A DNA stretch of 64,000 nucleotides from Cyanobacteria bacterium P01_C01_bin.120 (GTDB taxonomy: Bacteria; Cyanobacteriota; Cyanobacteriia; Phormidesmidales; Phormidesmidaceae), in assembly GCA_039027715.1 (NCBI GenBank), contig JBCCJU010000004.1, forward strand, positions 80 to 64,079. The letters run 5' to 3'. Position numbers and translations under genes: made by a program. Shown here one piece after another: positions 702 to 47,970 of the stretch. Each line of letters begins with the position of its first letter. Position 1 is the first letter of the stretch. The notes beneath the pieces are model-generated. The model did no database searches, was not told the DNA's origin, and was given only the letters and a program-made list of their open reading frames with translations.

Positions 702-2672
702 CTACGCGCCCTGGCGCAGTTTGTCGAGGACGCTTTGATCTTCCATGGTGGTGGCGTCGCCGACGATATCTTCACCGCTGGCGAGGTTGCGCAGGAAGCG
801 GCGAATGATTTTGCCCGATCGCGTTTTGGGCAGCGCATCGGCAAAGCGAATATCGGCAGGGCGGGCGATCGCGCCAATCTCCTGCACCACATGCTGCTTC
901 AGCTCACTGAGCAGGTCATCGCTGGGGGAATGAGTGCTCTCTAGGGTGACGAAAGCGAACACCTCTTCGCCGGTAATTTCATTCTTGCGCCCCACGACGG
1001 CCGCTTCCGCGACAGCGGGGTGAGACACTAGAGCCGACTCGATTTCCATCGTGCCGAGGCGGTGACCGGAGACACTGAGCACGTCATCGACGCGGCCCAT
1101 CACCCAAAAATAGCCGTCTTCGTCGCGACGGGCACCGTCTCCGGCAAAGTACAGATACTCGCCGTCTTGGGGGCGAATGTGTTCCCAATAGGTGCGGCGG
1201 AAGCGATCGTCATCACCGTAGACCGTGCGCATCATGCTGGGCCAGGGATGCTTAATCACCAGATAGCCGCCTTCGTTATCGCCAACGGAGTTGCCCTCTA
1301 GATCCACGATGTCAGCCAGAATGCCAGGAAAGGGTTTGGTGGCAGAACCGGGCTTAGTAGGTGTTGCCCCCGGCAGCGGCGTCAGCATAAAGCCGCCGGT
1401 TTCCGTTTGCCACCAGGTATCCACGATAGGGCAGTTGCCGCCGCCAATCACCTGTTGATACCACACCCAGGCTTCGGGATTGATCGGTTCGCCGACGGTG
1501 CCGAGAATGCGTAGAGAGGAAAGATCGCGGGCGTTGGGTTCCTGGTCGCCCATTTTCATAAAGGCGCGGATAGCCGTCGGCGCAGTGTAGAAAATATTGA
1601 CGCCGTACTTTTCCACCACATCCCAAAAGCAGCCGGGATTCGAGGGCCGGGGCACCCCTTCATACATCAGGCTAGTCGCGCCGTTCGACAGCGGGCCATA
1701 AACGATGTAGCTGTGGCCAGTGATCCAGCCGACGTCGGCGGTACACCAGTAGACGTCCGTATCCTTATGATCGAAAGTCCACTGAAAGGTCATGTGGGTA
1801 TAGAGGTTATAGCCGCCCGTGGTGTGGACGACGCCCTTGGGTTTGCCCGTGGTGCCGCTGGTGTAGAGGATAAACAGCATGTCCTCGGCGTCCATCTCCT
1901 CGGCAGGGCAGTCAGCGGAGGCAGTGGGCTGGAGGTCGTGCCACCAGCGATCACGCCCCTCCACCATGGGGATATCTTCTTTGGTGCGCTGCACGACGAG
2001 GACGTGTTGGACGCTGGGAGCGGCGTCATTTTCCAGCGCTTTATCCACTGCGGCCTTGAGAGGAATCACTTTGTCCTTGCGGAAGCCACCGTCCGCCGTA
2101 ATCACGACCTTGGCCTCGGCATCGTTGAGGCGATCGCGCAACGCCTCAGCACTAAAGCCGCCAAAGATCACAGTGTGGGGCGCGCCAATGCGGGCGCAGG
2201 CCAGCATGGCGATCGCCGCTTCGGGAATCATCGGCATATAGAGGCCAACGCGATCGCCCTTCTGCACGCCCAATTCTTTCAGCACGTTAGCCATTTGACA
2301 GACTTCGCGGTGCAGTTCACCGTAGGTTAGCGTCCGTGAATCGCCCGGTTCACCTTCCCAAATCAGCGCGGCCTTATTGCGTCGCCAGGTGGTCAAGTGC
2401 CGATCCAGGCAGTTGTAGGAAATATTGAGTTTGCCGCCGACAAACCATTTAGCAAACGGCGGCTGCCAGTCCAGTACCGTGTCCCACTTTTTGAACCAGT
2501 GCAGCTCCTGCTCTGCCAGCTCGGCCCAAAAGGCGGCCGGATCCGCTGCGGCTTTGTCATAAAGCTCCTGATAGGCTGCCATGCTTTGAATACGGGCAGC
2601 GGCAGAAAACTCTGCTGGGGGCTCAAACAAGCGCTTTTCTTGCAGGATGGATTCAATCGTTGGTTGAGACAT
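702..2672 (-). CDS. acs: Acetate--CoA ligase (acetyl-CoA synthetase)
   Basis: Motifs [26 protein letters not shown] and LPKTRSGKI. Start moved to [16 protein letters not shown] (ATG at 2672). Confidence 0.97.
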
Positions 2673-3548
2673 GACAATGGTGTGAGATTGCGAAATCTGG
2701 AGGCAGGACTGTCGCCGGCATCCGCCTCCCAAACCATACTGTGTTTTCCGACACAGCTAAATCAGTCTGTGCAATTTTTTAACGTCCGCTGCGACTGTCG
2801 GCGTCAATCAGCGCCACCTGTAGGGATCCGCAGCTTTGAAAGGCTAAGTCGGCTGTGCCACGGCGTTCGAACCGATGGGCGGTGGTCAGCGCCTGTCTAA
2901 GTTGACTTGGCAGCAGCACTCGCGTCTATTTAACATGCATTCCATTTTGCAATGATCAGCAAGTCGCTTTAGCGGTGCCTGATATCACCTCTCGCTCACG
3001 GGCAAGATGCAAGCAGGCTGGACCTCTGGCTACGCCAATTCGAGCGCATACTGCAGGCACGACAGCCTTTGAAAGGAGAAGTACTGCCGGCGGTGAGATT
3101 TGAACCAAGTGCTAAACAGCTTTACTAAAAATGTTCAAAAATTCTTGCCATGCATTATTGGCTGAAGAATTCAAAGCTAATATTGGCGAAAGTCCCCTAG
3201 CTACAATACTTTTATCCAAATCTTCTTTTGGCTAAAAAAATCTGCGAAGTTTTGCACAGACGTTCAGGGTGTTTCACCTAAAAGATGTAGTAAGGAAGCA
3301 AGCTATGTGGCAAAGGAGATTATTTATCCGCTTTTGTTGTCCCCGTTGCTCAAGCGATGGTGATTCTGTAGCCGTTAAAAGCTCCTTACGGTCACCAGAA
3401 TGATCGCTAGACTTAATGGCCACGGTAAAAACGCGGGTTTTGGCAAGCGATCGCCCACCGGTTTGTGAGTGACGTCTTGAGTCTGAGCATACTAAAAGAG
3501 CGTGATATCCAGAGCCGTGGTTTGCAGTCGAGAGAGTTAGCCGTACAC

Positions 3549-5162
3549 ATGCCTGATTTCGGTGCCAAGGTGGGAGTCATCCCAGTTGAGACTGATATTG
3601 TTGCCGTTACCGTCTATCCCGAACAAGCGCGGGTGACTCGTCAGGGGCAGATAGAAGTACATCAGCCGGAGGTCATTTTGGACATTGGGCCACTGCCCTC
3701 AACTTTGGCACCGCCGAGTGTGCAAGCCTATGCCCAGGGCACCGCCCGGGTATTGTTGCAAAGGCCAACGCTGGCGCCGGTGCCGCAGGCGGCTGAGTGG
3801 CAACGACAAGAAGAAGCCTTAGGCGATCGCCTGCGCCAGACCGAAGATCAGTTTCGTCGCTGTAAAGACAACCTGGCGGGGCTGAATCAACAGCAGGCTT
3901 TTCTCCAGTCCCTTTCCGACCGCATGGCCCATACCTTTGCGGAAGGGCTAGCCCAGCAGTCAATGGATTTGGCCCACGTAACGGCGTTTACAGACTTTTT
4001 TGAGCAGGCCCATCGGCGCCACAGTGAAGCGATCGCGGCTCAGGAACGGCAAAAGCAGGAACTTGACCAACAGCTGCAAGAAGCCCGCCAAGCTCTACAA
4101 CAGTTTCAGACCACCGGAAAGACGCCCAAATATCGCATTTTGCTTCCCGTCACCATAGAGCGATCGGGTGTTTTAGAGCTCAGTATTGTTTATGACGTCA
4201 TCAATGCCCAGTGGCAACCGGCCTATGACGTACGGTTGCAGGCCGATCACCATGGCTTGCAGATCGACTGCATTGCGGAAGTCCAGCAAAATACGGGAGA
4301 AAATTGGCATCAGGTCGATCTCAAAGTCTCGACGGCGGTCCCTGAAAAGACGCCCGCGATTCCAGATTCCAGCCTGCTAAACATTCAATCCGCTTTACAA
4401 CCGAAGCAAACCACTAACTCCACTACGAATAGCCCTCGCAAAGTCAAATCGCGTAGTCCGGTGCTAGACGAAACTTATCGCATGTTAGGAGCGCTGCCCG
4501 GCAGTGAAATTCCTGCCCAGGAGGAAGATAGCTGGGACGATGCGATGCTGCAGCCAGCCAACGCCATTATTTGTTTTGTCGCCACCCAGCCGGCGCAGGT
4601 GCCCAGTGACGGAGAAGTGCATCGAGTGCCCGTGGGACAACTGCAGTTGGATAGTCGCCTTGCCTATGTGGCGCTGCCGCAGCGCTGCAGTTCGGCCTAT
4701 CTGTGCGCAGCGCTCACCAATCCCCCAGAAAAATGGCCCTTGCTGCCGGGGACGGCCTATCTATTTCGGGATGGTGGCTATGTTGGGGCGGAAAAGTTTG
4801 ACTACGTGGCCCCAGGGGCGTCGTTTCAGCTGAGTCTGGGGTTGGACGAGCGGGTGCCGATTCAGCGGGAGTTGGTGACCCAAAAGACGGTTTCTGAAGA
4901 TGGCAGAGATTTACGGTCCTATCGGCTGACGATTCACAATCCATTCGACCAGGCAATTGACGTGACAGTGATTGAGCAAATTCCCACGGGGCGGGCGGGC
5001 GAAATTGAAGTGCAGATTATTAGCGCCAAGCCCGAGATAGATCTGCATCCAGAAGCTCAGTGTCAATGGGTCATGCAACTGGCGCCACAAGCGTCACAAC
5101 ATATTTTCTATCAGTATGAAATTCGGCATTCACCCAGCGATCGCTACGGCCCGCGATCGTAA
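3549..5162 (+). CDS. DUF4140/DUF4139 protein (MuiA-like)
   Basis: N-terminal IVAVTVYPEQARVTR, then a coiled coil, WQPAYDVRL, and C-terminal LLPGTAYLFRDGGYVG...LSLGLDERV. An alternative GTG start is at 3465. Confidence 0.85.
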   Translation: MPDFGAKVGVIPVETDIVAVTVYPEQARVTRQGQIEVHQPEVILDIGPLPSTLAPPSVQAYAQGTARVLLQRPTLAPVPQAAEWQRQEEALGDRLRQTEDQFRRCKDNLAGLNQQQAFLQSLSDRMAHTFAEGLAQQSMDLAHVTAFTDFFEQAHRRHSEAIAAQERQKQELDQQLQEARQALQQFQTTGKTPKYRILLPVTIERSGVLELSIVYDVINAQWQPAYDVRLQADHHGLQIDCIAEVQQNTGENWHQVDLKVSTAVPEKTPAIPDSSLLNIQSALQPKQTTNSTTNSPRKVKSRSPVLDETYRMLGALPGSEIPAQEEDSWDDAMLQPANAIICFVATQPAQVPSDGEVHRVPVGQLQLDSRLAYVALPQRCSSAYLCAALTNPPEKWPLLPGTAYLFRDGGYVGAEKFDYVAPGASFQLSLGLDERVPIQRELVTQKTVSEDGRDLRSYRLTIHNPFDQAIDVTVIEQIPTGRAGEIEVQIISAKPEIDLHPEAQCQWVMQLAPQASQHIFYQYEIRHSPSDRYGPRS

Positions 5163-5244
5163 AATGCCGCAAACGAAGGGCACCTGGAGCGGATGAGTGG
5201 CGATCGCGCTCAGAGATGCCCGGGCCAGTCATCAGACTTGGCCC

Positions 5245-9905: not shown

Positions 9906-11882
9906 CTACTCCGTCGGAAACCCCGTGGGGGCGTTCTCGTCAGTCACCGCATCAGCAGCATCAGCGGCATCAGCAGCTTCAACACCCTGCAGGCGCGAAA
10001 TCTGAAACTGCGCATCTCTATAGCAGCCAGTACGGCCCAAATCGAGGCAGAGTCGAGAGGCCGTTTGCAGATCGGTTAAGGCAGCTTGGGTGTTGTCAAG
10101 TTGAGCATACAAGAGGCCGCGATCGTAAATGGCGAAAACATAGTTGGCATCAATGGCGATCGCTTGACTAAAGTCGGCTATGGCTCCGGATACATCCTGC
10201 AGCGCCTGCCGAGTCAGGCCGCGATTGTAATAGGGATCGGGACTGTTGGGCTCAATCTGAATCGCAATATTGTAATCCTGCAGGGAGCCTTGAAAATCAC
10301 CTAGGCGGCGCCGCACCAGCCCCCGATTTTGATAGGCCAGAGCATGGCTGGGACGGAGGTTGATTGCCGCCGAACAGTCTTCAAGTGCTAGCTGCTGTTC
10401 ATCGAGGTTGGAGTAGGACAGGCAGCGGTTGAGATAGGCCGCAGCTTCAATTTCCGGCTGAGTGGCTAGGGCGATCGCTTCCGTGTAATCGTCAATGCTG
10501 CCGCGATCGTCCCCCCAGGAGGCGCGAGCACTGCCTCGATTGGCATAAGCTTTGGCAAAAGTAGCATCTTTATTAATGGCTTGCGTATAGTCATCAATGG
10601 CTCCCTGCACGTCGCCCAGGTTGAAGCGGATATTAGCGCGTTCATACACGTAATCGGGCTGATCGGGGGCTTGGGAGATCGCCGCAGACATGTCGGCCAG
10701 AGCCGCTTCAGGATTGCCACTATCAAAATAAAGCTGACCTCGCTGCATCAAGGCTTCAGCATGATTGGGCAGCAGCGCGAGCGCTTTCGTATATTGGTCG
10801 ATGGCGGCTTGTGGATTATCGGTAGCCACGGTAACAGCCGTATTGAGATGACGCCGAGCCAGCAAACGCTGCGGCAGTTTAAAAGCCACCACAGCGGTGG
10901 CACCCACTAAAGCTGCCAGACTCAACGCTCCTACGATGGTCCAAGGCCATCGGCGGCGCGATGGTGGGGATACAGGACCCGGAGCAGCAGTCGGCCATTG
11001 AGCTGATGGAGGGATTTCTGTCGTTGGCGGAGCCGAATCTTGCCAGCGACCAAGCTCGGCTAGGATATCAGTCGCTTTTTGATAGCGGCGTTCGGGGATG
11101 GCATGCACCATGCGCAACAGCAAATTGCCCAGGGCCGGCTCAAGATCTGGCAAAGCTTGTAATCGTGAGGCCAGAATTTCTGGCTGCTCCGGATTCTGAG
11201 CTGTAGGTAATTCGTCCACTGGCAGCCCCGTCAGCGCTTGCACCAGCATCATGCCCAGGGCGTAGTGATCGCTATAAAATAAGGGTTGGCCATGCAGTTG
11301 CTCAGGCGCTAGGTAAATATGATGGGCCGATTCAGAAGCATCAGCGGCAGTAGTCTGACGCCGACTGGTAACCTTTTGACTAACGTTCTTAATTGACCCA
11401 AAATCCAGGATGACTAGCTGACCAGTGTCGGTATGACGAATCAACTTTGAGGGTTTAAGATTGCCATGAACCACTCTCTGCTCTTGGGCGAAACTCAGCA
11501 CTGGCAGCACCTCTCTCAGAAAACTCACGGCGGCTGCCGGACTCCACGGCTGCCCTGGTTGAAGCTCTTCGCTCAGCGATCGCCCAGGAATATATTCCTG
11601 CACGATGTAAAAATTCTGTTCGACGTCAAATGCAGCATAGGCGTTGGGAATCTGAGGATGCTGGCCCAAGTCCTCCAGCTTGGCGGCTTTTTGCTTAAGC
11701 AACCGCAAGATAAACTGCCGCGTCATCGGATTGCGAGTGGGCAAATGCAATTCTCTCACGACACAATGGGGCTGACCTGGATAATGAATATCGGCGGCGA
11801 GTATCGTTCGGCCGGATGGCTGCTCATTAAGAACGCTAACCAGCTGATAGCGTCCCCCCAGCAGATTTTGAGTGGTAGACAT
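9906..11882 (-). CDS. Ser/Thr kinase-like domain + TM helix + TPR repeats (likely pseudokinase)
   Basis: GGRYQLV at the start, YIVQEYIPG, HGNLKPS, LDFG, YLAPEQ. A central TM segment is followed by about 8 TPRs (AYANRG, AYLNR, AYQNRG, YYNRG). Confidence 0.9.
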   Translation of the reverse strand: MSTTQNLLGGRYQLVSVLNEQPSGRTILAADIHYPGQPHCVVRELHLPTRNPMTRQFILRLLKQKAAKLEDLGQHPQIPNAYAAFDVEQNFYIVQEYIPGRSLSEELQPGQPWSPAAAVSFLREVLPVLSFAQEQRVVHGNLKPSKLIRHTDTGQLVILDFGSIKNVSQKVTSRRQTTAADASESAHHIYLAPEQLHGQPLFYSDHYALGMMLVQALTGLPVDELPTAQNPEQPEILASRLQALPDLEPALGNLLLRMVHAIPERRYQKATDILAELGRWQDSAPPTTEIPPSAQWPTAAPGPVSPPSRRRWPWTIVGALSLAALVGATAVVAFKLPQRLLARRHLNTAVTVATDNPQAAIDQYTKALALLPNHAEALMQRGQLYFDSGNPEAALADMSAAISQAPDQPDYVYERANIRFNLGDVQGAIDDYTQAINKDATFAKAYANRGSARASWGDDRGSIDDYTEAIALATQPEIEAAAYLNRCLSYSNLDEQQLALEDCSAAINLRPSHALAYQNRGLVRRRLGDFQGSLQDYNIAIQIEPNSPDPYYNRGLTRQALQDVSGAIADFSQAIAIDANYVFAIYDRGLLYAQLDNTQAALTDLQTASRLCLDLGRTGCYRDAQFQISRLQGVEAADAADAADAVTDENAPTGFPTE

Positions 11883-13958: not shown

Positions 13959-16900
13959 ATGTCAGCCGAGTCAGAACAGCGATCGCAGCGATTTGAACAA
14001 TTATCGGCATTCCCGCAGCCACAGTTTGAGCAGCTACTGTCTGCGCTGAATGTGCCTGCTGGCATCATTAGTGGCCCATCTGCGCCGCAGGGTACGCGCG
14101 TCGGTGATTTGCTGAATTGGGCAGAGGGAGGAACTGGCTGTGGATTGGAAGAGTTAGAAGCCGCCTACGATCAGGTGAAAAACGCTAATTTAATTGATTT
14201 TGCGCCGTATTTGCAATCAATTCTGGAAGACGAAGATTATCGCGAATGGCATGAGGTCTACACTCCCACGACAGTAGAAGGGCGCACGCCGTTATCTCAA
14301 CCCAAGTTTTCGCGGCTGTTAAAGCTGCAAGTGGAAACGGTGACGCAGCAGAAAGAGGAGCCGAAGCCAAAGGCAGAACAGAAAGATGAGCAGAAGCCAG
14401 AAGCAGAACGAGAAGACGAACAGAACCAGGAAAGCGCGCGCGAAAAAGTTGCGCAGTGGGATGCGCTAGCTGGATTGCGCAAATATGCCGCTGAACACAT
14501 GCTGTTAATCGGCAAGCCAGGGTCAGGCAAATCGACATCATTGGAGCGACTGCTGTGGGAAGAAGCCCAAAACGCCCTGCAAGACTCCGAAGCGAAAATT
14601 CCGGTACTAATAAAGCTGCGACGCTGTACGTCTACGATTGAGCATCTGATTCAAGACTTCTTAAGTCGCCATCAGTTACCGTTAGCGATTGCTGAGATTG
14701 AGCACTTGCTTCAACAGGGCAAGCTGTTGCTATTGTTGGATGGCCTAAACGAACTGCCGGAAATTTTTGTCACAGCGGCAAGGAACTTCCGAGATCGTTA
14801 CCACAAGACCACGCCGATGATCGTCTCCACTCGCGACTTGGCTGTGGGCGGCACTCTGGGTATCGACAAAGCTTTGAAGATGCTGCCTCTAACCGAAGCC
14901 CAAATGCAGGAGTTTGTACGAGGCTATTTGGGAGAAGCGGGCGATCGCTTGTTTCAGCAGCTCAGGGGCGATCGCCTGCGAAAGTTTGCCGAAACGCCTT
15001 TACTGCTCTGGATGCTCTGCCGCGTCTTTGCCCAAAACGGCCAGGTGCCCGACAACTTGGGATTAGCCTTTCGCGAATTCACCCAACTCTACGACGCAAA
15101 AATTCAGGAAGATGCACCCACCGAGTCACGAGAGCAATGGCCCAAGTTATTGCGTCATCTGGCATTTGCTCTGATGCACGGCGAGGAGTTGGTTGATTTT
15201 CGGCTGTCTATGCCACGGGAAGACGCCACGGATTTGTTGACAGCTTGCTTTCAACAAGAAGATAGAGCCAATGCCCGTGACTGTGCCGAACGCTGGCTGC
15301 AAGACCTGCTGGATTATCACTTGCTACAGCCTGTGAGACAGGCCAATTTTGCAGAGCATATCGAATTTCGCCACCAACTGATTCAGGAATATTACGCGGC
15401 GGAAGCGTTACAGCGACGCTTGCCTGACTTGCTTAAAGACGAGAACACATTCAAGCGCGACTATCTCAACCTATTGAAGTGGACAGAACCCATTGCTCTG
15501 ATGCTGGCGCTGGTTAATGAGGAAGAGCAGGCGCTGCGGGTGGTGAGGCTGGCGATCAATGTAGACGTAGTATTGGCTAGTCGTTTAACAAGCGAGATAG
15601 GCAGTAGGTTTCAGGAGAGAGCATTTGACTGGATTGTCAGTCTTGAATATTCAGCCAAGATTAGAATTTACTTGTTGATGTGGACTTTAGAAGTATCTGA
15701 TAATAAGTGTGCTTATTCTGCTCTATCAACTTTAGCCTGTAAACTATTTAAAGATTCAGTATCGAGAAATTCTCGATTTTCAGTAGAGGCACTTTTGTTC
15801 TCCGTTCAATTCTCTGGAAGGTCTTCATCTGAAATCGAGCTGATACTTGAAGCCTCCTGCGATCAGTCTGCTGATGTACGAGAAAGAGCCATTTACGGCT
15901 TAATAGAATTGATCGATCGCCACCAAAAAAAAATAACTGAACGAGAAATAGATGGTTGTATCGATAGATTATTAGAGGCAATTGAAAACGAAGATCTGCA
16001 AATACAAAGAAAAATCCTAAGAAGCCTAAATGTTTTCCGTACTGATACCTTAAGCGAGTTTATAGAAAAGATAGAAGCTAGAAACTTCTGTTTGTTTTGC
16101 CTAAAGGCCCTTGAGAAGTCAGATAAGGTTTCACTGGTAAAAAAATTAGTGTCTGGATCAAATAATATATTTGATCAGGTTTCCGAAGAAACCTGGTTGT
16201 TAGGATTGAAAGTCTTCGCCTCTAGTTCATCCGGCTTTCCACTTGAAAAATACTTCAACTTGTTCAACTTTAGCTTTGATGATGTTCTTTCTGGATTTGA
16301 TCGTATTTTTGAAATAGTTTTAGTTGTTGAATCCTTTAAATGCCTTAAGAAACTAAAAATCAGAAGCGCTACAAAGATGATAATGGTAGTATGTGAAGCT
16401 CTGAATAAAAAAACTCCTGATGAGTATTGGCTAGAATTTAGAAGGATAATCGATGATACTTTCTCTCCTGTTCATAAGAAAATAGAGGAAATTCTTGAGA
16501 ATGAAGAAGAATCGCATGGACTGCCTGAATTATCTAAAGTTTTAGAGGATTACCTTGTCGATTTCTTTTTGGATAGCTTAAACAGTCTACACTCTGAAGT
16601 GAGGGGCGAGGCAACAAAAGGTTTAGGGTTGATATTGCATGATTCCGTTATTTCTAATATTAAAGATGCCTTCTATGATTCAGACGACTTTGTTTGCGTC
16701 ATGGCTGTACAAACCCTTAGTAAAATTGGCAGTGAGCTAGCAATTCAAGAACTTACTAAAGCTCTAAATCATGAAAACCCTTATATACGTAGATATGCAG
16801 CCTATGAGCTAGGAGAAAAAGATAGTAGTGACTTAACGATTAAGCTCTTAAAAGCTTTGGAACCATATTACAGTATGGGAAACTTTGTATCGGTATCAAT

Positions 16901-17744
16901 ACCGGATCTTGATCCGGACTTCAGCGACCTAACTATTGAAAGAATTGTCCCTAGCATTTTGCGGGCGTGTAAGCATGGAGATCCAACGATTAGGCAGTTG
17001 GCTTTGAGAACATTGGAAGGCCTTGGCGGTGAGGGGCCAATCATCGAATTGATAAAAGCCATGGAGCATCCAAGTTATCAGATTTGTCAACTTGCCGAAT
17101 ATATTTTGAGTTTAGTAGGCGGAGATATTTTTCCAGCATTGCATCAGGCACTTAATCATCATTTTCCTGATGTGCGTAGTCATGCAGCTAAATTGATAGC
17201 AGCAAAATTCAGTAATCAAGCTGTCCCAGAATTACTTGACTTGCTTCATGATGTCGATGCTAAGGTTCGTTCTTCAGTCGTTAAAGCTCTTGGCGAAATT
17301 AAAGACAGCACAACTGTTTCAGAACTGCTATATATGCTTGGTGATTACGACTTTGAAGTATGTCGCTGTGCTATCGAAGCTCTCGGGAAGATTGGCAATG
17401 AGCGAGCTATTCCTGGCTTACTTTCTATACTTGAGGAACGTGATTATGACACTGTGGATGATTTAATCTACGCGCTTGAGCGTATCGGCGATGAGCGGGC
17501 TATTCCTGCACTGCTTAATCTACTTGAAGAAGATATTGATCCTGACACCTGCAGATCAATTGCACGAGCAATAGGGGAAATAGCAAATCCTTCGTTACTT
17601 ATAGATATTCGTGACTCATTCTTGGAGGGAGATAACACAGTCCAATTCGGTATGAGAGGTGAATTGGAGATCTTATGGTCGATTACAGAGCATCAAGAAG
17701 AATGTAAGTTTTACAACTACGAAATTTGGCAAGAAGCAATTTAA
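13959..17744 (+). CDS. NLR-like protein: N-terminal effector-associated domain (EAD9-like) + NACHT NTPase + HEAT repeats
   Basis: Walker A IGKPGSGKST, Walker B LLLLLDGLNE, AETPLLLWMLC, and HEAT/PBS repeats (VRSSVVKALGEI, AIEALGKIGNERAIPGL). Confidence 0.92.
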   Translation: MSAESEQRSQRFEQLSAFPQPQFEQLLSALNVPAGIISGPSAPQGTRVGDLLNWAEGGTGCGLEELEAAYDQVKNANLIDFAPYLQSILEDEDYREWHEVYTPTTVEGRTPLSQPKFSRLLKLQVETVTQQKEEPKPKAEQKDEQKPEAEREDEQNQESAREKVAQWDALAGLRKYAAEHMLLIGKPGSGKSTSLERLLWEEAQNALQDSEAKIPVLIKLRRCTSTIEHLIQDFLSRHQLPLAIAEIEHLLQQGKLLLLLDGLNELPEIFVTAARNFRDRYHKTTPMIVSTRDLAVGGTLGIDKALKMLPLTEAQMQEFVRGYLGEAGDRLFQQLRGDRLRKFAETPLLLWMLCRVFAQNGQVPDNLGLAFREFTQLYDAKIQEDAPTESREQWPKLLRHLAFALMHGEELVDFRLSMPREDATDLLTACFQQEDRANARDCAERWLQDLLDYHLLQPVRQANFAEHIEFRHQLIQEYYAAEALQRRLPDLLKDENTFKRDYLNLLKWTEPIALMLALVNEEEQALRVVRLAINVDVVLASRLTSEIGSRFQERAFDWIVSLEYSAKIRIYLLMWTLEVSDNKCAYSALSTLACKLFKDSVSRNSRFSVEALLFSVQFSGRSSSEIELILEASCDQSADVRERAIYGLIELIDRHQKKITEREIDGCIDRLLEAIENEDLQIQRKILRSLNVFRTDTLSEFIEKIEARNFCLFCLKALEKSDKVSLVKKLVSGSNNIFDQVSEETWLLGLKVFASSSSGFPLEKYFNLFNFSFDDVLSGFDRIFEIVLVVESFKCLKKLKIRSATKMIMVVCEALNKKTPDEYWLEFRRIIDDTFSPVHKKIEEILENEEESHGLPELSKVLEDYLVDFFLDSLNSLHSEVRGEATKGLGLILHDSVISNIKDAFYDSDDFVCVMAVQTLSKIGSELAIQELTKALNHENPYIRRYAAYELGEKDSSDLTIKLLKALEPYYSMGNFVSVSIPDLDPDFSDLTIERIVPSILRACKHGDPTIRQLALRTLEGLGGEGPIIELIKAMEHPSYQICQLAEYILSLVGGDIFPALHQALNHHFPDVRSHAAKLIAAKFSNQAVPELLDLLHDVDAKVRSSVVKALGEIKDSTTVSELLYMLGDYDFEVCRCAIEALGKIGNERAIPGLLSILEERDYDTVDDLIYALERIGDERAIPALLNLLEEDIDPDTCRSIARAIGEIANPSLLIDIRDSFLEGDNTVQFGMRGELEILWSITEHQEECKFYNYEIWQEAI

Positions 17745-24378: not shown

Positions 24379-26292
24379 CTAGGTTTCCAGCATTTGCAGC
24401 TTATACAAACTGGCATAAAGGCCATCTTGGGCCAAGAGGGATTCGTGATTCCCCTGTTCGATGAGCTCACCTTGTTTTAGAACCAAAATGCGATCCACGT
24501 TGCGAATCGTTGAAAGTCGGTGGGCAATGATGATGGCCGTGCGATCTACGAGCAACTTTTCGAGGGCATCTTGAATCAGAGCTTCAGTGCCGACATCAAG
24601 ATTTGCCGTAGCTTCATCCAAAATCAGAATACTGGGATTGCGAACTGCCGCCCGGGCGAAGGCCAATAGCTGCTTTTGTCCGCCGGAGAGGTTAGTCCCG
24701 CGTTCTCTCAGCCGCGTGTCATAGCCTTGGGGCAACTGTTCAATAAACGGGGCTACGTTAGTTTTTTCGGCGGCGGCGCGAATGGTGGCGAGAGAATAGT
24801 CTTCGCCTAAAGCAATGTTGCTTTTAATATCGCCAGCAAACAAAAAGCCGTCTTGCAGGATGACGGCCATCCGTTGTCGCAGTTCAGCCTGGGGCAGGTC
24901 ACGAATGTTGACGCCATCGAGCAAAATCTGTCCCTGGCTCACATCATAAAGGCGACAGAGCAGCCGAATAATCGAGCTTTTACCGGCGCCAGTGGGGCCG
25001 ACCAGCGCCACTTTCTCGCCGGGGCGAACGGTGAAATCTAAATCTTTGAGTACGTATTCATCAGATTTGTAGCCGAATAACACATGTTCAAAACGAATTT
25101 CGGCGGCTGCAACGGGAGCCTGAATGCTGTCGGCGATGGCTTGAGGCGCGATCGCGGCGTGGCTGGAGCCATTAAACCGAACTGAGGAGGGGATTGAGGC
25201 CACAGCCGGTTGGGAAGCTGGCTCTAGTTCCGGATCTTTGATTTCGATGGGGACGCTGAACAGATCGGTGATCCGCTCGACGGCGGTAAACCCCGCTTGG
25301 ATGGAGGTAAATTTATCGGCAAACTGCCGCAGCGGATCAAATAGTCGTTGGGCGTAAAGAATAAATGTGGTCAATACGCCGAAGGTCAGGGCGTCCTGCA
25401 TGACCAAGTAGCCGCCGAGCCAGAGCACACCGGCGATCGCCACTAGGGATATCCACTCCAGCGTTGAGGACACGGCAGAATCGTGAAAAATTGTGGCGTC
25501 AACGGCCCGCACATACTGATTGTTCGTATGGCGAAACGCTTCAGCGTTGTAACGTTCACGACGAAACATCTGCACCACTTCGATGCCCATGATGTTCTCT
25601 TGCAGAGTGGCATTGAGTTCAGACAGTTTTTCCCGAGCCCGATAGTTCGCTTTGCGATATTGCTGCTGAAAATAGATAGTCAGCCAAGTGACCGGCAGCA
25701 GCAGCGCCATCAACAACAGCGCTAGCTGCCACTGCCGCCAAAACATCGCCACTGCAATGACAACGATGGAAAAGATATCGCTAAAAATGCCCACTGCCCC
25801 CGTCGAAAAGACGTCGCCCAGCGCATCGACATCGCTGGTGAGGCGCGTAATTAGTTTGCCGATGGGGGTGCGATCAAAAAAGCGTACCGCCAGTGACGTG
25901 ACATGGGCAAATAGGTCATTGCGAATGTTTGCCGTGACTTGCTGTCCTACCTTTTGAACCAAAAAGCTTTGCCAACCATCCAGCGTCAAGCGCACCATCA
26001 CAGTCAGCAGCAGCAGCGCCACCAAAATATTCAGGCCCCCCTGCAGCGTTCGGTCTTCAAGGAACCAAGCCACTGGCTCTTGGCGAATCAGCGAAATCGC
26101 TTGACCGATCAGCAGCGGCTGCAGGGCATTGGCCAAAGACAGCGGTATCAGTAGTAGAAAGGGCAGCCACAAAGCCCGCCGCTGGGCGCGAATGTAGGGC
26201 CATAGACGCAAAAATAAGCGCCAGTCGTTATCCACACTCGCTGATTTCTGGCGATGGTCGGGGGGCGGAGAAGAAGTGGTCGCTACAGTCAT
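24379..26292 (-). CDS. ABC transporter, fused permease/ATP-binding protein (MsbA/MdlB-like)
   Basis: GPTGAGKS, LSGGQKQ, ILDEAT, IAHRLST. Start moved to ATG 26292. Confidence 0.95.
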   Translation of the reverse strand: MTVATTSSPPPDHRQKSASVDNDWRLFLRLWPYIRAQRRALWLPFLLLIPLSLANALQPLLIGQAISLIRQEPVAWFLEDRTLQGGLNILVALLLLTVMVRLTLDGWQSFLVQKVGQQVTANIRNDLFAHVTSLAVRFFDRTPIGKLITRLTSDVDALGDVFSTGAVGIFSDIFSIVVIAVAMFWRQWQLALLLMALLLPVTWLTIYFQQQYRKANYRAREKLSELNATLQENIMGIEVVQMFRRERYNAEAFRHTNNQYVRAVDATIFHDSAVSSTLEWISLVAIAGVLWLGGYLVMQDALTFGVLTTFILYAQRLFDPLRQFADKFTSIQAGFTAVERITDLFSVPIEIKDPELEPASQPAVASIPSSVRFNGSSHAAIAPQAIADSIQAPVAAAEIRFEHVLFGYKSDEYVLKDLDFTVRPGEKVALVGPTGAGKSSIIRLLCRLYDVSQGQILLDGVNIRDLPQAELRQRMAVILQDGFLFAGDIKSNIALGEDYSLATIRAAAEKTNVAPFIEQLPQGYDTRLRERGTNLSGGQKQLLAFARAAVRNPSILILDEATANLDVGTEALIQDALEKLLVDRTAIIIAHRLSTIRNVDRILVLKQGELIEQGNHESLLAQDGLYASLYKLQMLET

Positions 26293-26427
26293 AAACAGAG
26301 TCGGTGCGATCGCTCGCCCGGTTGCCAATATCAAAAAAATCACATATTCCGCCTAGGCGGCACTGTGCTCTGCTCACACTGTATCGCAGGTTACTAACCG
26401 ATGGCTGGCGTTGAGCGGCCACTGGCG

Positions 26428-40022: not shown

Positions 40023-40697
40023 TCAGAGTGGAGCTACTTCAACCGTCATTGGCGAGTCTCCACGGGGCGCGGGAGTAAACGTAATCTGCTGCCCCACGAT
40101 CGCGATGTCGCCAGAGTAGCCCATCTCAAGAAATAATTCGCCGCGTCGCGTCAGGGTCAGCCGCGAGCGGGGCGCGCCATCCCGCCACATTTCGCTGTCG
40201 AGACCACAGCTCACCAGCATCACCGACGGAAAGGTAGCACTGCCGCCAGTATTGATGAACGTTCGCAAGACATAGGTGCCGTCACTGAGTTGGCCAAGTG
40301 GAAGATAGCCGGCAAAGCGGCGATCGCCTTGCTGCTCCCACTCAGCAATTACCCGTCCAGCTTCGTTTACTGAGACGTCAGCATAAAACTGGTTAGTGTC
40401 AGCAGTTGATCCTTCGACATCCACAGCGATCGCGCCCGGCAACTGATCCGAAAGCCATGGCTCCAGCGCCATCACCGCTCTGGGATTTATCGGTTCTCCT
40501 CGAAACGTGAACGATGTTTGCAACTCTGTCAAAGCAGCCGCGTAATCGATGCTGACAGTCTCGGCTGGCGGCAGATCGACTTCTTCAGCTGTCGAATGCA
40601 GCGACAAATTTCCCAGCCCGTATAGCAGGACTAAACTCACGAGCAGCAGCCCCAGCGATCGCAATTGCCGCGACCATTCAATCTTTTTCTTGGCCAT
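40023..40697 (-). CDS. Hypothetical exported protein
   Basis: 224-aa ORF with an N-terminal TM helix and no recognised family. Confidence 0.75.
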   Translation of the reverse strand: MAKKKIEWSRQLRSLGLLLVSLVLLYGLGNLSLHSTAEEVDLPPAETVSIDYAAALTELQTSFTFRGEPINPRAVMALEPWLSDQLPGAIAVDVEGSTADTNQFYADVSVNEAGRVIAEWEQQGDRRFAGYLPLGQLSDGTYVLRTFINTGGSATFPSVMLVSCGLDSEMWRDGAPRSRLTLTRRGELFLEMGYSGDIAIVGQQITFTPAPRGDSPMTVEVAPL

Positions 40698-40960
40698 AAA
40701 AACACTTTTTCTTAAGATTTAGCCGACTCGATTTTATAGTCCCCAAAACGTTAATCAAATACCTTAAATATGTTCACTTTTCTCAATAAAGACATAAGCT
40801 TCTTAGCTGAATAAATTTTCTTGTGCAAGCGAATCGCAAAGTTTGGGGGGAGGTTAATGTGAATATAAGCCAGAGATTAACTGGTAATTAATTCACCTGA
40901 TTTTCCATTCGCTGCGGGAATTTAGGTGGAAACTGTCACACCTAAATGGAAGGGGTAATT

Positions 40961-42991
40961 ATGACCCGGAAAGTCTTATCGGGGCTGCGCAATATTGCGA
41001 TTGTTGGCCCCTACTCTAGTGGTAAAACTACTCTATTAGAAAGCCTGCTATACGTTAGTAAAACGATCGCTCGTAAAGGCAAAATTGAAGACGGCAATAC
41101 CTTAGGCGATGCCGCCCCAGAAGCCCGCGATCGCACGATGACTGTTGAATTAAACGCCGCCAGCGCAGAGTATGGCGGCGTTTGTTTTAATTTTTTAGAT
41201 TGTCCAGGATCGGTGGAACTACAGCAAGAAACGGATAATGCTCTGTTGGGAGTAGATGCCGCTATTATCGTTTGCGAAGCTGATCCCCATCGCGTATTGA
41301 CGTTGGCTCCTTTGTTGCAATTTCTTGACAGTTGGGAAATTCCTCATCTGATCTGGATTAACAAAATGGATCGAGCCACGGCTCCTTTTCCGGAAATACT
41401 GGCAGCGCTAAAAACCGTTTCGAGTCGGCCTATTCTGCCCCAACAATATCCCATCCGTGAAGAACAGAAACTAGTTGGCTTTATTGATCTGATTACGGAA
41501 CAGGCCTACCACTATCACGAGGATGCTCCCGCCGATCCGGTGCCGCTGCCGGCTGCCCTTAAATCAGCAGAACAGGTCACCCGTGAAGAAATGCTCGAGG
41601 CACTGGCGGACTTTGACGATCATCTGCTTGAGGAGCTTTTGGAAGACGTCGAGCCGCCTCAGGCAGAAATCCTACAGGACTTCAAGCAAGATTTGGGGGC
41701 CGACCTGATTGTGCCGGTCTTGTTTGGCATGGCCGCCAAAGACTACGGCACTCGTCCGCTGTGGGAGGCCCTGGTGAAAGAAGCGCCCGATGCGGCGATT
41801 ACTGCGACTAATCGCGGCCTGGAAGGTGACGCGGACGAAACGTTGGCGCAGGTGCTCAAAACCTTTTATACCCCCCAGGGAGGCAAGCTGTCGCTGGTGA
41901 GAGTGTGGCAGGGCAGCCTAGCCAACGGCGATAGCCTAAATGGCGATCGCATGGGCGGCCTGTATCAGCTGATGGGGACACAGCAGCAGAGCGTAACTCA
42001 GGCTCAAGCTGGTGACATTGTGGCCATCTCCCGTCTAGAGTCTGCTACCACTGGCACCACCCTGTCGTCCCTGACGGCTCCTAGCGTGGAGTTGCCAAAG
42101 GCTGCCGTGCTAACGCCGGTTTACGCATTGGCGATCGCACCCGAAAAGCGCAGTGACGAAGTGAAGCTTACTGACGCCCTCAATAAACTCAGGGAAGAGG
42201 ATCCGTCATTGCGGTGGGAGCAGCATGGCGACACCCATGAGGTCATTTTGTGGGGCCAAGGCGAAGTACATCTCAAGATTTCGCTAGATCGCCTACGTCG
42301 CAAGTACAATTTGCCTATGTCTACGCACCTGCCCCGCATTTCCTACAAAGAAACCATTCGCCGCACAGGAAAAGAAATTCGTGGTCGCTATAAGCATCAA
42401 ACTGGCGGGCACGGTCAGTTTGGCGATGTCTATCTCGACATCCAACCTCTGGAACGTGGCCAAGGCTTTAATTTTGCTCAAAAAATTGTGGGTGGCGTAG
42501 TGCCCCGGCAATATATTCCCAGCGTGGAGACTGGCGTGCGGGAATACCTCAGTCAGGGTCCTCTGGGCTTTCCCGTGGTGGATGTCGCCGTCACCCTGAC
42601 ACACGGGTCTTACCACGCCGTAGACAGCTCTGATCAGGCCTTCAAACAGGCGGCCCGCATTGCAATGCAGGAGGGGCTCCCTAAATGTGAACCGGTTTTG
42701 CTGGAGCCCGTGGATGCGGTGCAAATTTTAGTGCCCAACAGCTTCACTGCTAACGTGCTGAAGCTGATTAGCGGTCGTCGTGGCCAAATCCTGGGCTATG
42801 AAGCCAAAACTGGCTGGCAGGGCTGGGATATGGTTGCCGCTTACCTTCCCGAATCAGAAATGCAGAGTCTGATTCTCGAGTTGCGATCGCTCTCGATGGG
42901 CGTTGGCACTTTTAGCTGGCAGTACGATCATCTCGACCCCGTGCCAAATGAATTACGCGATCGTATTTTGGTTCAGACCAAAGATCGCTAA
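40961..42991 (+). CDS. Elongation factor G paralogue (EF-G2/FusA-like, divergent G domain)
   Basis: GPYSSGKTT, DCPG, NKMD, KHQTGGHGQFG, GSYHAVDSS, SLSMGVGTF. Confidence 0.93.
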   Translation: MTRKVLSGLRNIAIVGPYSSGKTTLLESLLYVSKTIARKGKIEDGNTLGDAAPEARDRTMTVELNAASAEYGGVCFNFLDCPGSVELQQETDNALLGVDAAIIVCEADPHRVLTLAPLLQFLDSWEIPHLIWINKMDRATAPFPEILAALKTVSSRPILPQQYPIREEQKLVGFIDLITEQAYHYHEDAPADPVPLPAALKSAEQVTREEMLEALADFDDHLLEELLEDVEPPQAEILQDFKQDLGADLIVPVLFGMAAKDYGTRPLWEALVKEAPDAAITATNRGLEGDADETLAQVLKTFYTPQGGKLSLVRVWQGSLANGDSLNGDRMGGLYQLMGTQQQSVTQAQAGDIVAISRLESATTGTTLSSLTAPSVELPKAAVLTPVYALAIAPEKRSDEVKLTDALNKLREEDPSLRWEQHGDTHEVILWGQGEVHLKISLDRLRRKYNLPMSTHLPRISYKETIRRTGKEIRGRYKHQTGGHGQFGDVYLDIQPLERGQGFNFAQKIVGGVVPRQYIPSVETGVREYLSQGPLGFPVVDVAVTLTHGSYHAVDSSDQAFKQAARIAMQEGLPKCEPVLLEPVDAVQILVPNSFTANVLKLISGRRGQILGYEAKTGWQGWDMVAAYLPESEMQSLILELRSLSMGVGTFSWQYDHLDPVPNELRDRILVQTKDR

Positions 42992-45562: not shown

Positions 45563-46456
45563 TTACGAGGACCCCAATAAAGCACGATCGCTCGGCATTC
45601 CCTCAATATCCGTTGCTAAGCGGAACAGATCACCCGCCTGATAATGCGTCTTGAGCTCTGCTTGGGTCATTCCCGCCGAGGCAGTGGTGATGTAGAGGTC
45701 GGTCAAATTAGGGCCGCCAAAAGTACAGGAAGTGACCAAGGGTACGGGTAGCGGCACCCGCAGCATTTCTTGGCCATCGGGATCGAACCGGATAACACAC
45801 CCGCCATTCCACATTGCCGACCAAATGCAGCCGGCGGCATCAATGGTGAGCCCGTCAGGGTAAAACGATTCATGGGTTAAATCGACCAGGGGGCGGCGAT
45901 CGCTAATCTCGCCGCTAGCGGCATCAAACCGATAAGCATAAATCGTCTGACGCGGACTGTCCGTCAAATAAAACATGGCTTGATCGGGACTCCAGCCCAA
46001 ACCATTGGCGATGGACAGCCCGGTTTCCATTTGTTTAAGGGCGCCATCGGCATCGTAGCGATAGAGACTGGCTTGAGGCTGCTCATTGTTGTTCATCGTG
46101 CCCACCCAAAGGCGGCCCTGGCGATCGCAGCGCACATCGTTGAGACGATTGTCGGGTCGATTGGCTTCAATTTCGACCATCGACACTAGCTCGTGAGTAG
46201 CAAGATTCAACCGGCCCAACCCATTTTCTTGAGCCACGATTAGGTGCTCTCCATCCATTAGGAACAGACCACTCACAACGGTATCAATTTCGATGAAAGA
46301 GGCCATTTTAGCTGCGGGATCAAATGTATGCACCCGGCGATTGTAAATGTCAACCCAGTGGAGCCGCTGATGTTGAGCATCCCAAAGCGGACCTTCCCCC
46401 AGGCGAGCGCGCACTGGCAGCACGTTTTCAATGGAGTCAAGCATATTTTGCAGCAT
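45563..46456 (-). CDS. SMP-30/gluconolactonase/LRE family protein
   Basis: LGEGPLW, RLNDVRCD, NGLGWSPD, PDGLTID, SCTFGG. Confidence 0.94.
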   Translation of the reverse strand: MLQNMLDSIENVLPVRARLGEGPLWDAQHQRLHWVDIYNRRVHTFDPAAKMASFIEIDTVVSGLFLMDGEHLIVAQENGLGRLNLATHELVSMVEIEANRPDNRLNDVRCDRQGRLWVGTMNNNEQPQASLYRYDADGALKQMETGLSIANGLGWSPDQAMFYLTDSPRQTIYAYRFDAASGEISDRRPLVDLTHESFYPDGLTIDAAGCIWSAMWNGGCVIRFDPDGQEMLRVPLPVPLVTSCTFGGPNLTDLYITTASAGMTQAELKTHYQAGDLFRLATDIEGMPSDRALLGSS

Positions 46457-46677
46457 AGAACCCTCAGTTAAGAGCGGAGTATACGGAAGGTAGATTCGAA
46501 ATAGGACATCGTTATGAGTCGCCTTCCGTACAGTTTCTAGTGTTAATAGTTAATAGGCGACAACGAACTTCAAACTATAGGCTCCACAATTTTTCTTATT
46601 CTTACAGCCGACCGCAAAAACGCGGCGCTAATGAAAAAACTGGCTATAGTGTTTGGTTGAAAGTTGAGCGATCGCCT

Positions 46678-47487
46678 ATGAATGCTTCTGCGACTACTGC
46701 CAGCCCTTTAAAGGTGTTTGTCTCTTATTCGCATAAAGATGAGCCGCTCAAAGACGAGCTCGTCGTCTTTTTGAAGGCGCTGCAAAATCTCGGGAAGATC
46801 AGCATCTGGCAAGATCGGGCGATCGATGCCGGTTCTGAATGGAATCAGGCAATTCTACAAGCGTTTGATAGTGCTGACATCATTCTGCTACTAATCACAG
46901 CTCGCTTTATTGGCTCTGACTTTTGCTTCAGCAAAGAAATGTCTCGGGCCCTGATGCACCATGAGGAGAAGACAGCGCGCGTGATTCCCATTATTATGAC
47001 GCCTTGTGCCTGGCAGCAGATGCCGTTTGCCAAGCTACAAATCCTCCCCACTGACGGCAAGCCAGTAGTCGAATGGCGCAGTCAAGATGCCGGGCTTGAT
47101 GATGTCATGAGAGGTATCACCCGTGTGGTGGATAAGCTACATGGAGCACAGCCAGCAGTTGATGATGGCTGGGGAGCACCGTTATCGCCCCCCCCAAATA
47201 TTCAAATGGCTGAGAGGGCAGCGGAGCCTTTAGCCGAAAAACCAACTGCAGACCCATCAGAATCGCTTAGCGCGGCGCAAAAGCGACTGGCGCTGTTCCA
47301 ACTGCTGTCAAGCTTGCCAGGACCAACTTTTGATGCTGTAGTTTATGCTCTCAATGTTCCACCACCACTAATGCCCCCATCAATAGCGCCCCAAGGGCAA
47401 AGGGTATCAGCGCTGCTAAATTGGGCAAAGAGTCCGGTTGGTTGCGGCCTGCAAGAACTAGAAGCGGTGATTAAAGCAGTTTGCTGA
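46678..47487 (+). CDS. TIR domain protein with C-terminal effector-associated domain (EAD9-like)
   Basis: KVFVSYSHKDE, IWQDRAIDAGSEW, SDFCFSKEM (the Glu sits at the catalytic position), RVIPII, then a Pro-rich linker and a 67-aa helical domain. Start moved to ATG 46678. Confidence 0.92.
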   Translation: MNASATTASPLKVFVSYSHKDEPLKDELVVFLKALQNLGKISIWQDRAIDAGSEWNQAILQAFDSADIILLLITARFIGSDFCFSKEMSRALMHHEEKTARVIPIIMTPCAWQQMPFAKLQILPTDGKPVVEWRSQDAGLDDVMRGITRVVDKLHGAQPAVDDGWGAPLSPPPNIQMAERAAEPLAEKPTADPSESLSAAQKRLALFQLLSSLPGPTFDAVVYALNVPPPLMPPSIAPQGQRVSALLNWAKSPVGCGLQELEAVIKAVC

Positions 47488-47577: not shown

Positions 47578-47970
47578 CTAGGCTGGCACCTTCTGTGTGG
47601 CTAAAAAACGCTGTAAACGCATCAAATTTAAGCTCTGCCCCAAATTAATTGGCAACACAGAGATGCCTTCTATACGCGACTGTACCCATCCATCGCCCCA
47701 CCGCCATTCATGAAAACCGTCAACCCCTTCCCAGAGCAAAAACCGCATGCTTTGAGGCGTTAAATCAGTGACCTGGTGCTGTACTTTGAGAGGACCAAGA
47801 TAGCTGGTAAAGGTGGTATCCACTTCTAAGACATCCGGCAAACCGACAGAAAAAGTTTGGGGCCACAACCACTGCGTAAATTGACGCGGTTGCAGCAAAC
47901 TGTCACGGATAATTGCAGCTGGAGCGTCGACTTCAACCCGCAGGGTTGTTTGCTGGAAGGTGCCAAACAT
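47578..47970 (-). CDS. Conserved cyanobacterial hypothetical protein (possible SRPBCC fold)
   Basis: MFGTFQQ...LWEGVDGFHEWRWGDGWVQSRIEG. Confidence 0.8.
   Translation of the reverse strand: MFGTFQQTTLRVEVDAPAAIIRDSLLQPRQFTQWLWPQTFSVGLPDVLEVDTTFTSYLGPLKVQHQVTDLTPQSMRFLLWEGVDGFHEWRWGDGWVQSRIEGISVLPINLGQSLNLMRLQRFLATQKVPA

Follow-up and report, generated by a model that had tools for sequence, protein, structure and literature searches.

The subject of this analysis is a gene for a 269-residue protein, here called TIR-X, in a stretch of 64,000 nucleotides from Cyanobacteria bacterium P01_C01_bin.120 (assembly GCA_039027715.1, contig JBCCJU010000004.1), which is referred to below as the window. 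The protein consists of a TIR domain, a linker rich in proline and acidic residues and a C-terminal helical module, domain X, and a second copy of X was found in the same window at the N-terminus of a NACHT NTPase with HEAT repeats (X-NACHT-HEAT; Table 1). We consider the chances slightly better than even that these two proteins form a split immune receptor, in which the NACHT protein recruits TIR-X via contacts between their X domains. The original prediction for this gene, made from the letters of the sequence, had described a TIR protein with an intact catalytic glutamate and a C-terminal effector-associated domain (EAD), which needs an external scaffold, and within the reach of sequence analysis this reading was supported in its essentials.

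The X domain shared by TIR-X and a NACHT-HEAT protein

In a six-frame search of the window with domain X of TIR-X, the sole other copy recovered was the N-terminus of the NACHT protein (phmmer E = 6.6e-15; hmmsearch with the X profile E = 2e-30; about 46% identity), and the external scaffold that had been predicted for TIR-X thus has a candidate within the same window. The presence of X on both an NTPase and a TIR effector within one 64-kb window was observed in one genome only. The NACHT core was identified by Pfam with a score of 44.8 bits, as compared to a cut-off of 26.7, its Walker A and Walker B motifs are intact, and the NACHT module is followed by repeats that match HEAT_2 with 167 bits.

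The positions taken by X on the two proteins were found to be occupied by other adaptor or effector domains in their relatives. Searches with residues 1–543 of the NACHT protein recovered a large family of cyanobacterial NACHT-HEAT proteins with a variable N-terminal slot, which was occupied by X in 11 of the 120 best hits. Among orthologs with modules that are 55–70% identical, the slot contains X, the Pfam domain EAD10 (P0298), Trypsin_2 or Metallophos. Close relatives of the TIR carry, in place of X, the Pfam domains EAD1 (P0087), EAD5 (P0078), EAD9 (P0084), CHAT or AAA_16. X is interchangeable with curated EADs or with direct effector fusions on both the TIR and the NACHT sides.

Two proteins were identified in which a TIR of the TIR-X family is fused in cis to the NACHT module, one with the arrangement X-NACHT-TIR, in which Pfam detects no HEAT repeats (P0352), and one with the arrangement NACHT-HEAT-TIR (P0316). 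The TIR domains of both share the motifs ARVIPI...PxDW...PF..L..LP...PVT.W with the TIR-X family. Because they unite in a single chain the families to which the two window proteins belong, these fusions provide Rosetta-stone evidence that the two proteins act in one pathway. In addition, domain X of TIR-X is 45.7% identical to the X domain of the NACHT protein in its own genome, as compared to 29.6–40.9% identity to the X domains of 11 other X-NACHT orthologs.

Several observations weigh against the pairing. The X domain of the window NACHT protein is 47–54% identical to the X domains of TIR-X proteins from other genomes, as compared to 45.7% for its own TIR-X, and since it is equally or more similar to the foreign copies, there is no clear signal of co-evolution within the genome. 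The TIR-X and NACHT genes are 29 kb apart, they do not share an operon, and neither of them is located in a defence island. Co-occurrence of TIR-X and X-NACHT was not found in a second assembly in look-ups of exact proteins, for which the proteins came from different assemblies. Likewise, no TIR-X gene was present within 4 kb of the X-NACHT orthologs at loci L023 and L025, and no X-NACHT gene was present within 5–10 kb of the TIR-X loci in other genomes. The most common context of X is in proteins with TRADD-N and pentapeptide domains, and such proteins might be the true partners or further ones. Finally, X has four helices, as compared to six in the adaptors of the Death fold, and its matches to Death, Pyrin and CARD structures were non-significant. 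On the other side stand published results for similar arrangements: homotypic coupling through EADs has been predicted by Kaur et al. (PMC7159879, PMC8195603), and CARD-like adaptors are required in bacterial systems that resemble NOD-like receptors (NLRs), where they were found by experiment to be essential for activation of the effector (PMC10312443, PMC13236601).

The C-terminal half of the NACHT protein differs from the remainder of the gene in both composition and conservation. The guanine-plus-cytosine content at 15681–17744 is 0.38, with a minimum of 0.33, as compared to 0.51 for the whole window and for the N-terminal half of the gene, and residues from about 700 to 850 match only 8–13 of the 120 NACHT homologs. 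This half of the protein resembles a sensor cassette, foreign in composition or evolving fast, that was added to a conserved NACHT module. None of the PADLOC models for bNACHT or Avs matched the NACHT protein, for which the HEAT-ARM model was the sole PADLOC match. Small genes that resemble toxin-antitoxin genes follow two of the X-NACHT-HEAT orthologs (UPF0175 at L023, 6804–7497; DUF2281 and PIN at L025, 6551–7164), unlike the copy in the window.

Anatomy of TIR-X and distribution of domain X

The TIR domain of TIR-X was recognized by sequence profiles as well as by its predicted structure. Residues 13–121 matched the Pfam model TIR_2 with 52.9 bits (cut-off 28), and the best match in PADLOC was to the ThsB1 model PDLC00420 (1e-46, residues 12–160). 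The AlphaFold2 model of the full protein, which was built on 61 homologs, had a mean confidence (pLDDT) of 86.5, with a beta-alpha TIR core at residues 10–155 and pLDDT values above 90 over most of it. Foldseek matched this model with a probability of 1.0 to the TIR domains of MAL, SPARTA TIR-APAZ, TIR-1/SARM1, AbTir, RPP1 and RPS4 in the Protein Data Bank (PDB).

The motif SDFCFSKEM, in which the catalytic glutamate had been placed, is located at residues 80–88, and Glu87 was unchanged in all 61 homologs of TIR-X. In the HMMER alignments, Glu87 is paired with the glutamate of SDWCWD-EL in Cat1, SKWCLM-EL in L6 and SSWCLD-EL in AtTIR. The glutamate of this WCxxEL motif is established as the catalytic position in TIR NADases such as these three, and the claim of an intact glutamate at the catalytic position was upheld by both its invariance and its alignment. 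Judging by profile, fold and Glu87, the TIR of TIR-X is predicted to be of the NADase-competent class and to cleave NAD+. A match to DUF4062 below the Pfam threshold (17.9 bits, cut-off 24.7) overlaps residues 12–96 of the TIR (46711–46965 in the window) and is most likely caused by cross-talk between related folds; DUF4062 has been renamed NADase domain (NIR) in a 2026 preprint (10.64898/2026.09.04.749371).

The linker string that had been reported for TIR-X, DDGWGAPLSPPPN, was recovered at residues 162–174, and residues 166–194 have pLDDT values below 50 in the model. Immediately after the TIR domain, a DDGW-x-(T)PP motif is retained in 33 of the 61 homologs, with the sequence DDGWGAPL in the window copy (residues 162–169, 47161–47184). 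The motif is conserved although the linker is otherwise variable and disordered, and it may serve for docking. Comparison with the ortholog of 97% protein identity in a genome that is 98% identical identified 11 synonymous and 7 non-synonymous codon changes in the TIR-X gene, with four of the latter at residues 181–189 of the linker and none of the seven in domain X. Since the substitutions cluster in the linker and spare X, both folded domains appear to be under purifying selection. The protein encoded by the open reading frame (ORF) of 269 residues has the three parts originally described, and the claim that it contains no sensor domain was borne out.

Domain X is a four-helix module in the model of the full-length protein, with pLDDT values of about 96 over residues 199–269, approximately. 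A construct of 73 residues with X alone was modelled by AlphaFold2 with similar confidence (pLDDT 96.5; predicted TM-score 0.85), and its helices span positions 3–15, 19–28, 43–55 and 62–72, with a conserved proline-rich loop between helices 2 and 3. A conserved PPxGNxPP / APQGQR loop and a W-A-x-S-P-x-G-C-G-L surface of X are candidate sites for contacts between X domains.

No Pfam family of the EAD, Death or helix-turn-helix (HTH) type was found for the C-terminal 74–113 residues or for 30 diverse X sequences at E-values up to 10, no NCBIfam model matched X, and a sequence-profile search of the PDB with X returned nothing real. Alignment of the X profile to EAD1, EAD5, EAD9 and EAD10 with hhalign gave probabilities below 1%, in what is a weak test as the templates consisted of only 1–4 sequences. 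The X model had no significant Foldseek match in the PDB or BFVD. Five of the 11 weak matches in the PDB were to Death-fold structures (the Death domains of RAIDD and TRADD, the Pyrin domain of NLRP3, cPOP1 and the pyrin-like CENP-N), with TM-scores of 0.44–0.59 and non-significant E-values of 2.5–9.6. X is also without the signatures of bDLD3 (PMC8195603), a family marked by tryptophan in the second and fourth helices and by RxD in the sixth.

With no significant match from Pfam, NCBIfam, hhalign or Foldseek, X falls outside both the curated EAD families and the six-helix Death superfamily. The designation of this module as an EAD in the original prediction fits an effector-associated adaptor by its architecture; as a family assignment it does not hold, since no Pfam EAD model matches, and we use the term for a functional class. 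X would thereby represent an uncatalogued family of adaptors, absent from Pfam and NCBIfam, with the architectural features of an EAD.

An exhaustive search of 1.84 billion representative proteins with a hidden Markov model of X recovered 1202 X-bearing representatives, which are clusters at 50% identity, at E-values up to 1e-3, and 605 at E-values up to 1e-10. The domain architectures emerged from this search; a word-indexed search of proteins with the X profile gave only 24 short ones, and a narrower alignment of X scanned against genome contigs gave 18 loci, mostly of TIR-X orthologs. Among the best 150 of the 1202 hits, X was N-terminal in 65 proteins, C-terminal in 42, internal in 14 and present in multiple copies in 11, while 18 were stand-alone X proteins of at most 140 residues. 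In about 60 homologs the TIR is followed by X, and in P0045 and P0088 it is preceded by X. X is an independent, mobile module. The Pfam domains identified in the 86 long hits were pentapeptide repeats (19), TIR (15), TRADD-like_N (14), NB-ARC (6), NACHT (6), CHAT (6), AAA_16 (6), GUN4 (4) and FGE-sulfatase (3), and these partners are typical of conflict systems. The architecture X-TRADD-N-pentapeptide accounted for nine of the ten sampled cases with an N-terminal X.

Tandem arrays of two to seven copies of X were identified in some proteins, and some of these adjoin further X genes. Arrays of four to seven copies were seen in proteins including P0145, P0146, P0149 and P0151, of which P0146 has the composition TIR+TIR+CHAT+TIR+5xX+STAND. 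At locus L015 of Nodosilinea sp. AN01ver1, a second ORF with X (4662–5213) comes immediately after one with seven copies of X (2034–4502). Proteins with multiple X domains may be multivalent adaptor hubs. No phage-encoded X was found with patterns in IMG/VR, by tblastn in INPHARED or in BFVD. In one TIR-X ortholog from a metagenome-assembled genome (MAG) of Nodosilinea sp. (P0063), X is replaced by unrelated sequence after "...QANR" in a manner that resembles a frameshift, for which either a pseudogene or an error of assembly could account.

Proposed mechanism, alternative explanations and known systems

In the mechanism that we propose, TIR-X would supply the effector of a split module that resembles NLRs and serves immunity or cell suicide. 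Its TIR, which would be of the NAD+-cleaving or signal-making type, would be inactive as a monomer and tethered to X by the flexible linker. Binding of an invader-derived ligand to the HEAT/ARM repeats in the NACHT protein would be followed by nucleotide exchange and oligomerisation of the NACHT module, by which its X domains would be clustered and would capture TIR-X through X–X contacts. The high local concentration of TIR domains would then create composite active sites around Glu87, and NAD+ would be hydrolysed or converted to a signal of the cyclic ADP-ribose (cADPR) type, with the result that the infected cell stops growing. Within this scheme we infer that X binds to X and that proximity activates the TIR, as well as the product that the TIR makes, the trigger and any use of TIR-X by other X-bearing proteins. 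Under every model considered here, the output of the TIR may be either depletion of NAD or a signal.

TIR-X might be recruited solely or mainly by other X-bearing hubs elsewhere in the genome, such as X-TRADD-N-pentapeptide proteins, multi-X scaffolds or X-NB-ARC proteins, or X might self-polymerise TIR-X into filaments, an explanation that we regard as rather unlikely. It draws on the predominance of TRADD-N and pentapeptide domains among the contexts of X, on the tandem arrays and their adjoining X genes, on the 18 X-only proteins among the 150 hits and on the lack of linkage between the NACHT and TIR-X genes. However, the sole other copy of X within 64 kb is located on the NACHT protein, and the cis fusions join the TIR family of TIR-X to the family of the window NACHT protein. 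Recruitment by other hubs extends the pairing with X-NACHT-HEAT rather than excluding it, and it corresponds to the idea of a shared effector in the original prediction.

A wider arrangement is conceivable, and we put it forward as a tentative model that falls short of an expectation. In filamentous cyanobacteria, X could wire an unlinked, genome-wide network, in which one vertically inherited TIR-X would be shared in trans by X-NACHT, X-NB-ARC and X-TRADD-N-pentapeptide proteins, with the proteins that contain two to seven X domains as hubs similar to ASC or FADD and the X-only proteins as regulators. If so, the X network would represent an institutionalised, inflammasome-like pathway in bacteria and not a self-contained defence island.

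We find it improbable that X is instead a nucleic-acid-binding HTH domain, which would make TIR-X an autonomous sensor and effector on DNA or RNA or tie it to transcription. The N-terminal domain of cyanobacterial TRADD-N-pentapeptide proteins has been labelled "TRADD-N-aHTH1" or "ECF-HTH" (source data of PMC8195603), and the X-TRADD-N-pentapeptide proteins, which are 350–480 residues long and come from filamentous cyanobacteria, resemble the TRADD-N-aHTH1 entries in Figure 3-source data 1 of that paper: in both, a small helical domain is followed by TRADD-N and then by pentapeptide repeats, as in the most common X proteins. Unlike X, which is known on both TIR and NACHT proteins, aHTH1 has no "aHTH1+TIR" or "aHTH1+STAND" entries, and the identity of the two domains is unproven, as there is no overlap in accessions and the cluster accessions are all later than Kaur 2021. 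The helix-LPxP-helix start of X resembles region 4 of sigma-70, by eye only; none of the 30 X sequences matched Pfam HTH or sigma-70 models at E-values up to 10, and no HTH or sigma-factor structure was significant in the PDB, with YdaT as the sole HTH protein listed (probability 0.08). By direct reading of the window TIR copy, X is near-neutral in charge, with five lysines or arginines as compared to four aspartates or glutamates. Moreover, an adaptor would account better than a DNA-binding domain for the occurrence of X in arrays of as many as seven copies and on effectors as well as STAND NTPases.

The position of the TIR-X gene in the chromosome bears on a further alternative. The gene order around TIR-X is identical over 19 kb in the genome that is 98% identical, and in at least five other species-level genomes (60–74% protein identity), the gene adjoins a paralog of elongation factor G (EF-G) and a gene for a signal-anchored protein of 224 residues. 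Oscillatoria sp. CS-180 and MAGs, one of them of Halomicronema, are among those genomes (loci L003 and L006–L009). The pair of EF-G and 224-residue genes at 40023–42991 in the window has the opposite orientation, and the SBP, L20, L35 and SGL genes lie between it and TIR-X, an arrangement that points to a local rearrangement. The synteny comparison that had been suggested for related genomes thus revealed a stable position among housekeeping genes, and this stability across genomes indicates that TIR-X is vertically inherited. Vertical inheritance at a stable position is unusual for defence genes. In the plasmids of PLSDB, no full-length TIR-X was found, and the relatives detected there, for example in Acaryochloris, matched in the TIR only. 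The 224-residue protein was rejected as a functional partner of TIR-X, given its signal anchor, the gap of about 0.9 kb between the genes in other genomes and its inverted position 6 kb away in the window.

Domestication of TIR-X for a role outside defence, such as cell death in development or under stress or the homeostasis of NAD+, would explain its vertical inheritance among housekeeping genes, with the conserved synteny and the lack of full-length copies on plasmids and of X in the phage collections searched as supporting observations. Kaur et al. have also tied these systems to a multicellular habit (PMC7159879). Such a role has a low probability in our estimate: the sensor region of the NACHT protein is divergent and compositionally foreign, as is typical of immune receptors, X is known to be fused only to domains of conflict systems, and immunity is itself compatible with vertical inheritance.

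Least probable of all is that TIR-X acts like ThsB of the Thoeris system, sensing infection and producing a cADPR-isomer signal for a ThsA-like effector encoded elsewhere, with X as a regulatory or sensing appendage. This explanation draws on the ThsB1 model as the best PADLOC match and on a weak NCBIfam match to ThcB4 of Thoeris type III (E = 0.04). Against it, the ThsB1 match is confined to the TIR, within a model of 319 positions, the NCBIfam matches score far below their cut-offs (12.8 bits as compared to 220), no gene with a SIR2, Macro or SLOG domain, as expected of ThsA (SIR2 or Macro-SLOG), was present among the identified neighbours, and ThsB is not known to bear shuffled adaptor domains that are shared with STAND NTPases, unlike TIR-X with its additional adaptor.

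The pairing of TIR-X with X-NACHT-HEAT appears to belong to the EAD class predicted by Kaur et al. (2020/2021) and is not categorically new. As in the EAD-coupled pairs of effectors and STAND NTPases (PMC7159879, PMC8195603), the NTPase and the TIR carry a small, non-catalytic helical domain at one terminus and are encoded in the same genome, the corresponding slots of their orthologs hold EAD1, EAD5, EAD9, EAD10 or effector fusions, and the setting is a filamentous cyanobacterium. In contrast to those pairs, X matches no Pfam EAD model, the two genes in the window are 29 kb apart instead of adjacent, and a simple NACHT-HEAT protein forms the core in place of a ternary system of the vWA-MoxR or GTPase type.

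The combination of an NLR-like ATPase with a separate effector via a small helical adaptor is also found in systems with CARD-like adaptors (type II gasdermin/CARD-NLR; PMC10312443, PMC13236601), although these have a six-helix CARD, protease effectors and a single operon, as compared to a four-helix X, a TIR and unlinked genes in the window. With single-chain TIR-STAND receptors (bNACHT/Avs-type proteins, plant TNLs and the logic of SARM1), the window proteins share the glutamate in the same helix and, as proposed here, a TIR NADase that is switched on as it forms oligomers on a scaffold such as a STAND protein, and the fusions P0352 and P0316 join the same families in one chain; in the window, by contrast, TIR and NTPase are on two chains, with only a common adaptor to connect them.

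The EAD principle, by which sensors in bacteria recruit separately encoded effectors by means of small homotypic adaptors as do the CARD and Death domains of animals, rests almost entirely on comparative genomics, and experimental tests have so far been confined to CARD-like adaptors in operon-encoded systems. The pair in the window is compact and tractable for tests of recruitment in trans, with a TIR-X protein of 269 residues and an X-NACHT-HEAT protein of 1261 residues. Mutants of Glu87, of the Walker A residue Lys191 and with a deletion of X are at hand, and the relatives fused in cis could be used as positive controls. If the pairing is true, a bacterial NLR would signal in trans over a distance of tens of kilobases, the catalogue would gain a widespread adaptor family that Pfam and NCBIfam lack, and split systems of this type would be missed by methods that find defence genes from their neighbourhoods.

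Genomic surroundings of the two genes

Table 1. Positions in the window of TIR-X, its flanking genes and the X-NACHT-HEAT protein, with the basis of each assignment.
Feature	Position	Strand	Description and basis
TIR-linker-X gene (TIR-X)	46678..47487	+	269 aa plus stop, monocistronic; ORF listing and start agreement with homologs
TIR domain	46705..47142	+	Residues 10-155; Pfam TIR_2, PADLOC, AlphaFold2, Foldseek
Glu87 codon, putative catalytic glutamate	46936..46938	+	GAA, in motif SDFCFSKEM
Pro/acidic disordered linker	47143..47271	+	Residues 156-198; DDGW-x-PP motif at start
Domain X of TIR-X	47272..47484	+	Residues 199-269; adaptor of about 70 aa with four helices, resembles an EAD, not curated; AlphaFold2
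SMP-30/gluconolactonase (SGL) gene	45563..46456	-	Flanks TIR-X; Pfam 285.6 bits
130-aa hypothetical ORF	47578..47970	-	Flanks TIR-X; no Pfam match
X-NACHT-HEAT protein, predicted partner	13959..17744	+	1261 aa; X search of window, Pfam NACHT and HEAT_2
Domain X of NACHT protein	13971..14186	+	Residues 5-76; 45.7% identical to TIR copy
NACHT NTPase core	14499..14933	+	Residues 181-325; Pfam NACHT
Walker A, GKPGSGKST	14511-14537	+	Residue 185 onward; read from sequence
Walker B, LLLLLDGLNE	14724-14753	+	Residue 256 onward; read from sequence
HEAT/ARM repeat region	15681..17744	+	Divergent, low-GC (0.38); presumed ligand-sensing part

The longest ORF over the TIR-X locus starts from a GTG codon at 46540 and extends to 47487 on the forward strand, which would give a protein of 315 residues. 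The ATG codon at 46678 and the length of 269 residues agree with the NCBI protein P0001, which is 97% identical, and with about 60 other homologs. Since the SGL gene upstream is divergent and the hypothetical gene downstream is convergent, TIR-X is a monocistronic gene, and these two flanks are the SMP-30 gene and the conserved hypothetical gene named in the original prediction. Scans for promoters and terminators around the TIR-X gene gave signals at the level expected by chance.

The genes around TIR-X code for SGL, L35, L20, SBP, a hypothetical protein, SPOUT, ArsC, SnoaL and CCB1, and the remainder of the window contains housekeeping genes, including those for acetyl-CoA synthetase, pseudouridine synthase, EF-G, L20, L35, a Mnh antiporter and a photolyase-related protein. 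In line with the original prediction, the immediate surroundings are not a defence locus; the description of the gene as standing alone holds for this local neighbourhood only, because the likely partner is encoded 29 kb upstream. Sequencing runs that contain the TIR-X locus were of marine metagenome DNA only, and the source is a marine cyanobacterium of the Leptolyngbyaceae type.

The neighbours of the NACHT gene are a MatE transporter and a tyrosinase. At a distance of 2 kb from it, a gene for a serine/threonine kinase with TPR repeats (9906–11882, reverse strand) matched the PADLOC model PD-T4-6 with E-values up to 2e-57, which is probably a generic similarity among kinases. An ABC transporter gene at 24379–26343 on the reverse strand, with ABC_membrane and ABC_tran domains, matched the PADLOC models mad3 and mad8 over its ATPase domain, and these matches were judged to be generic.

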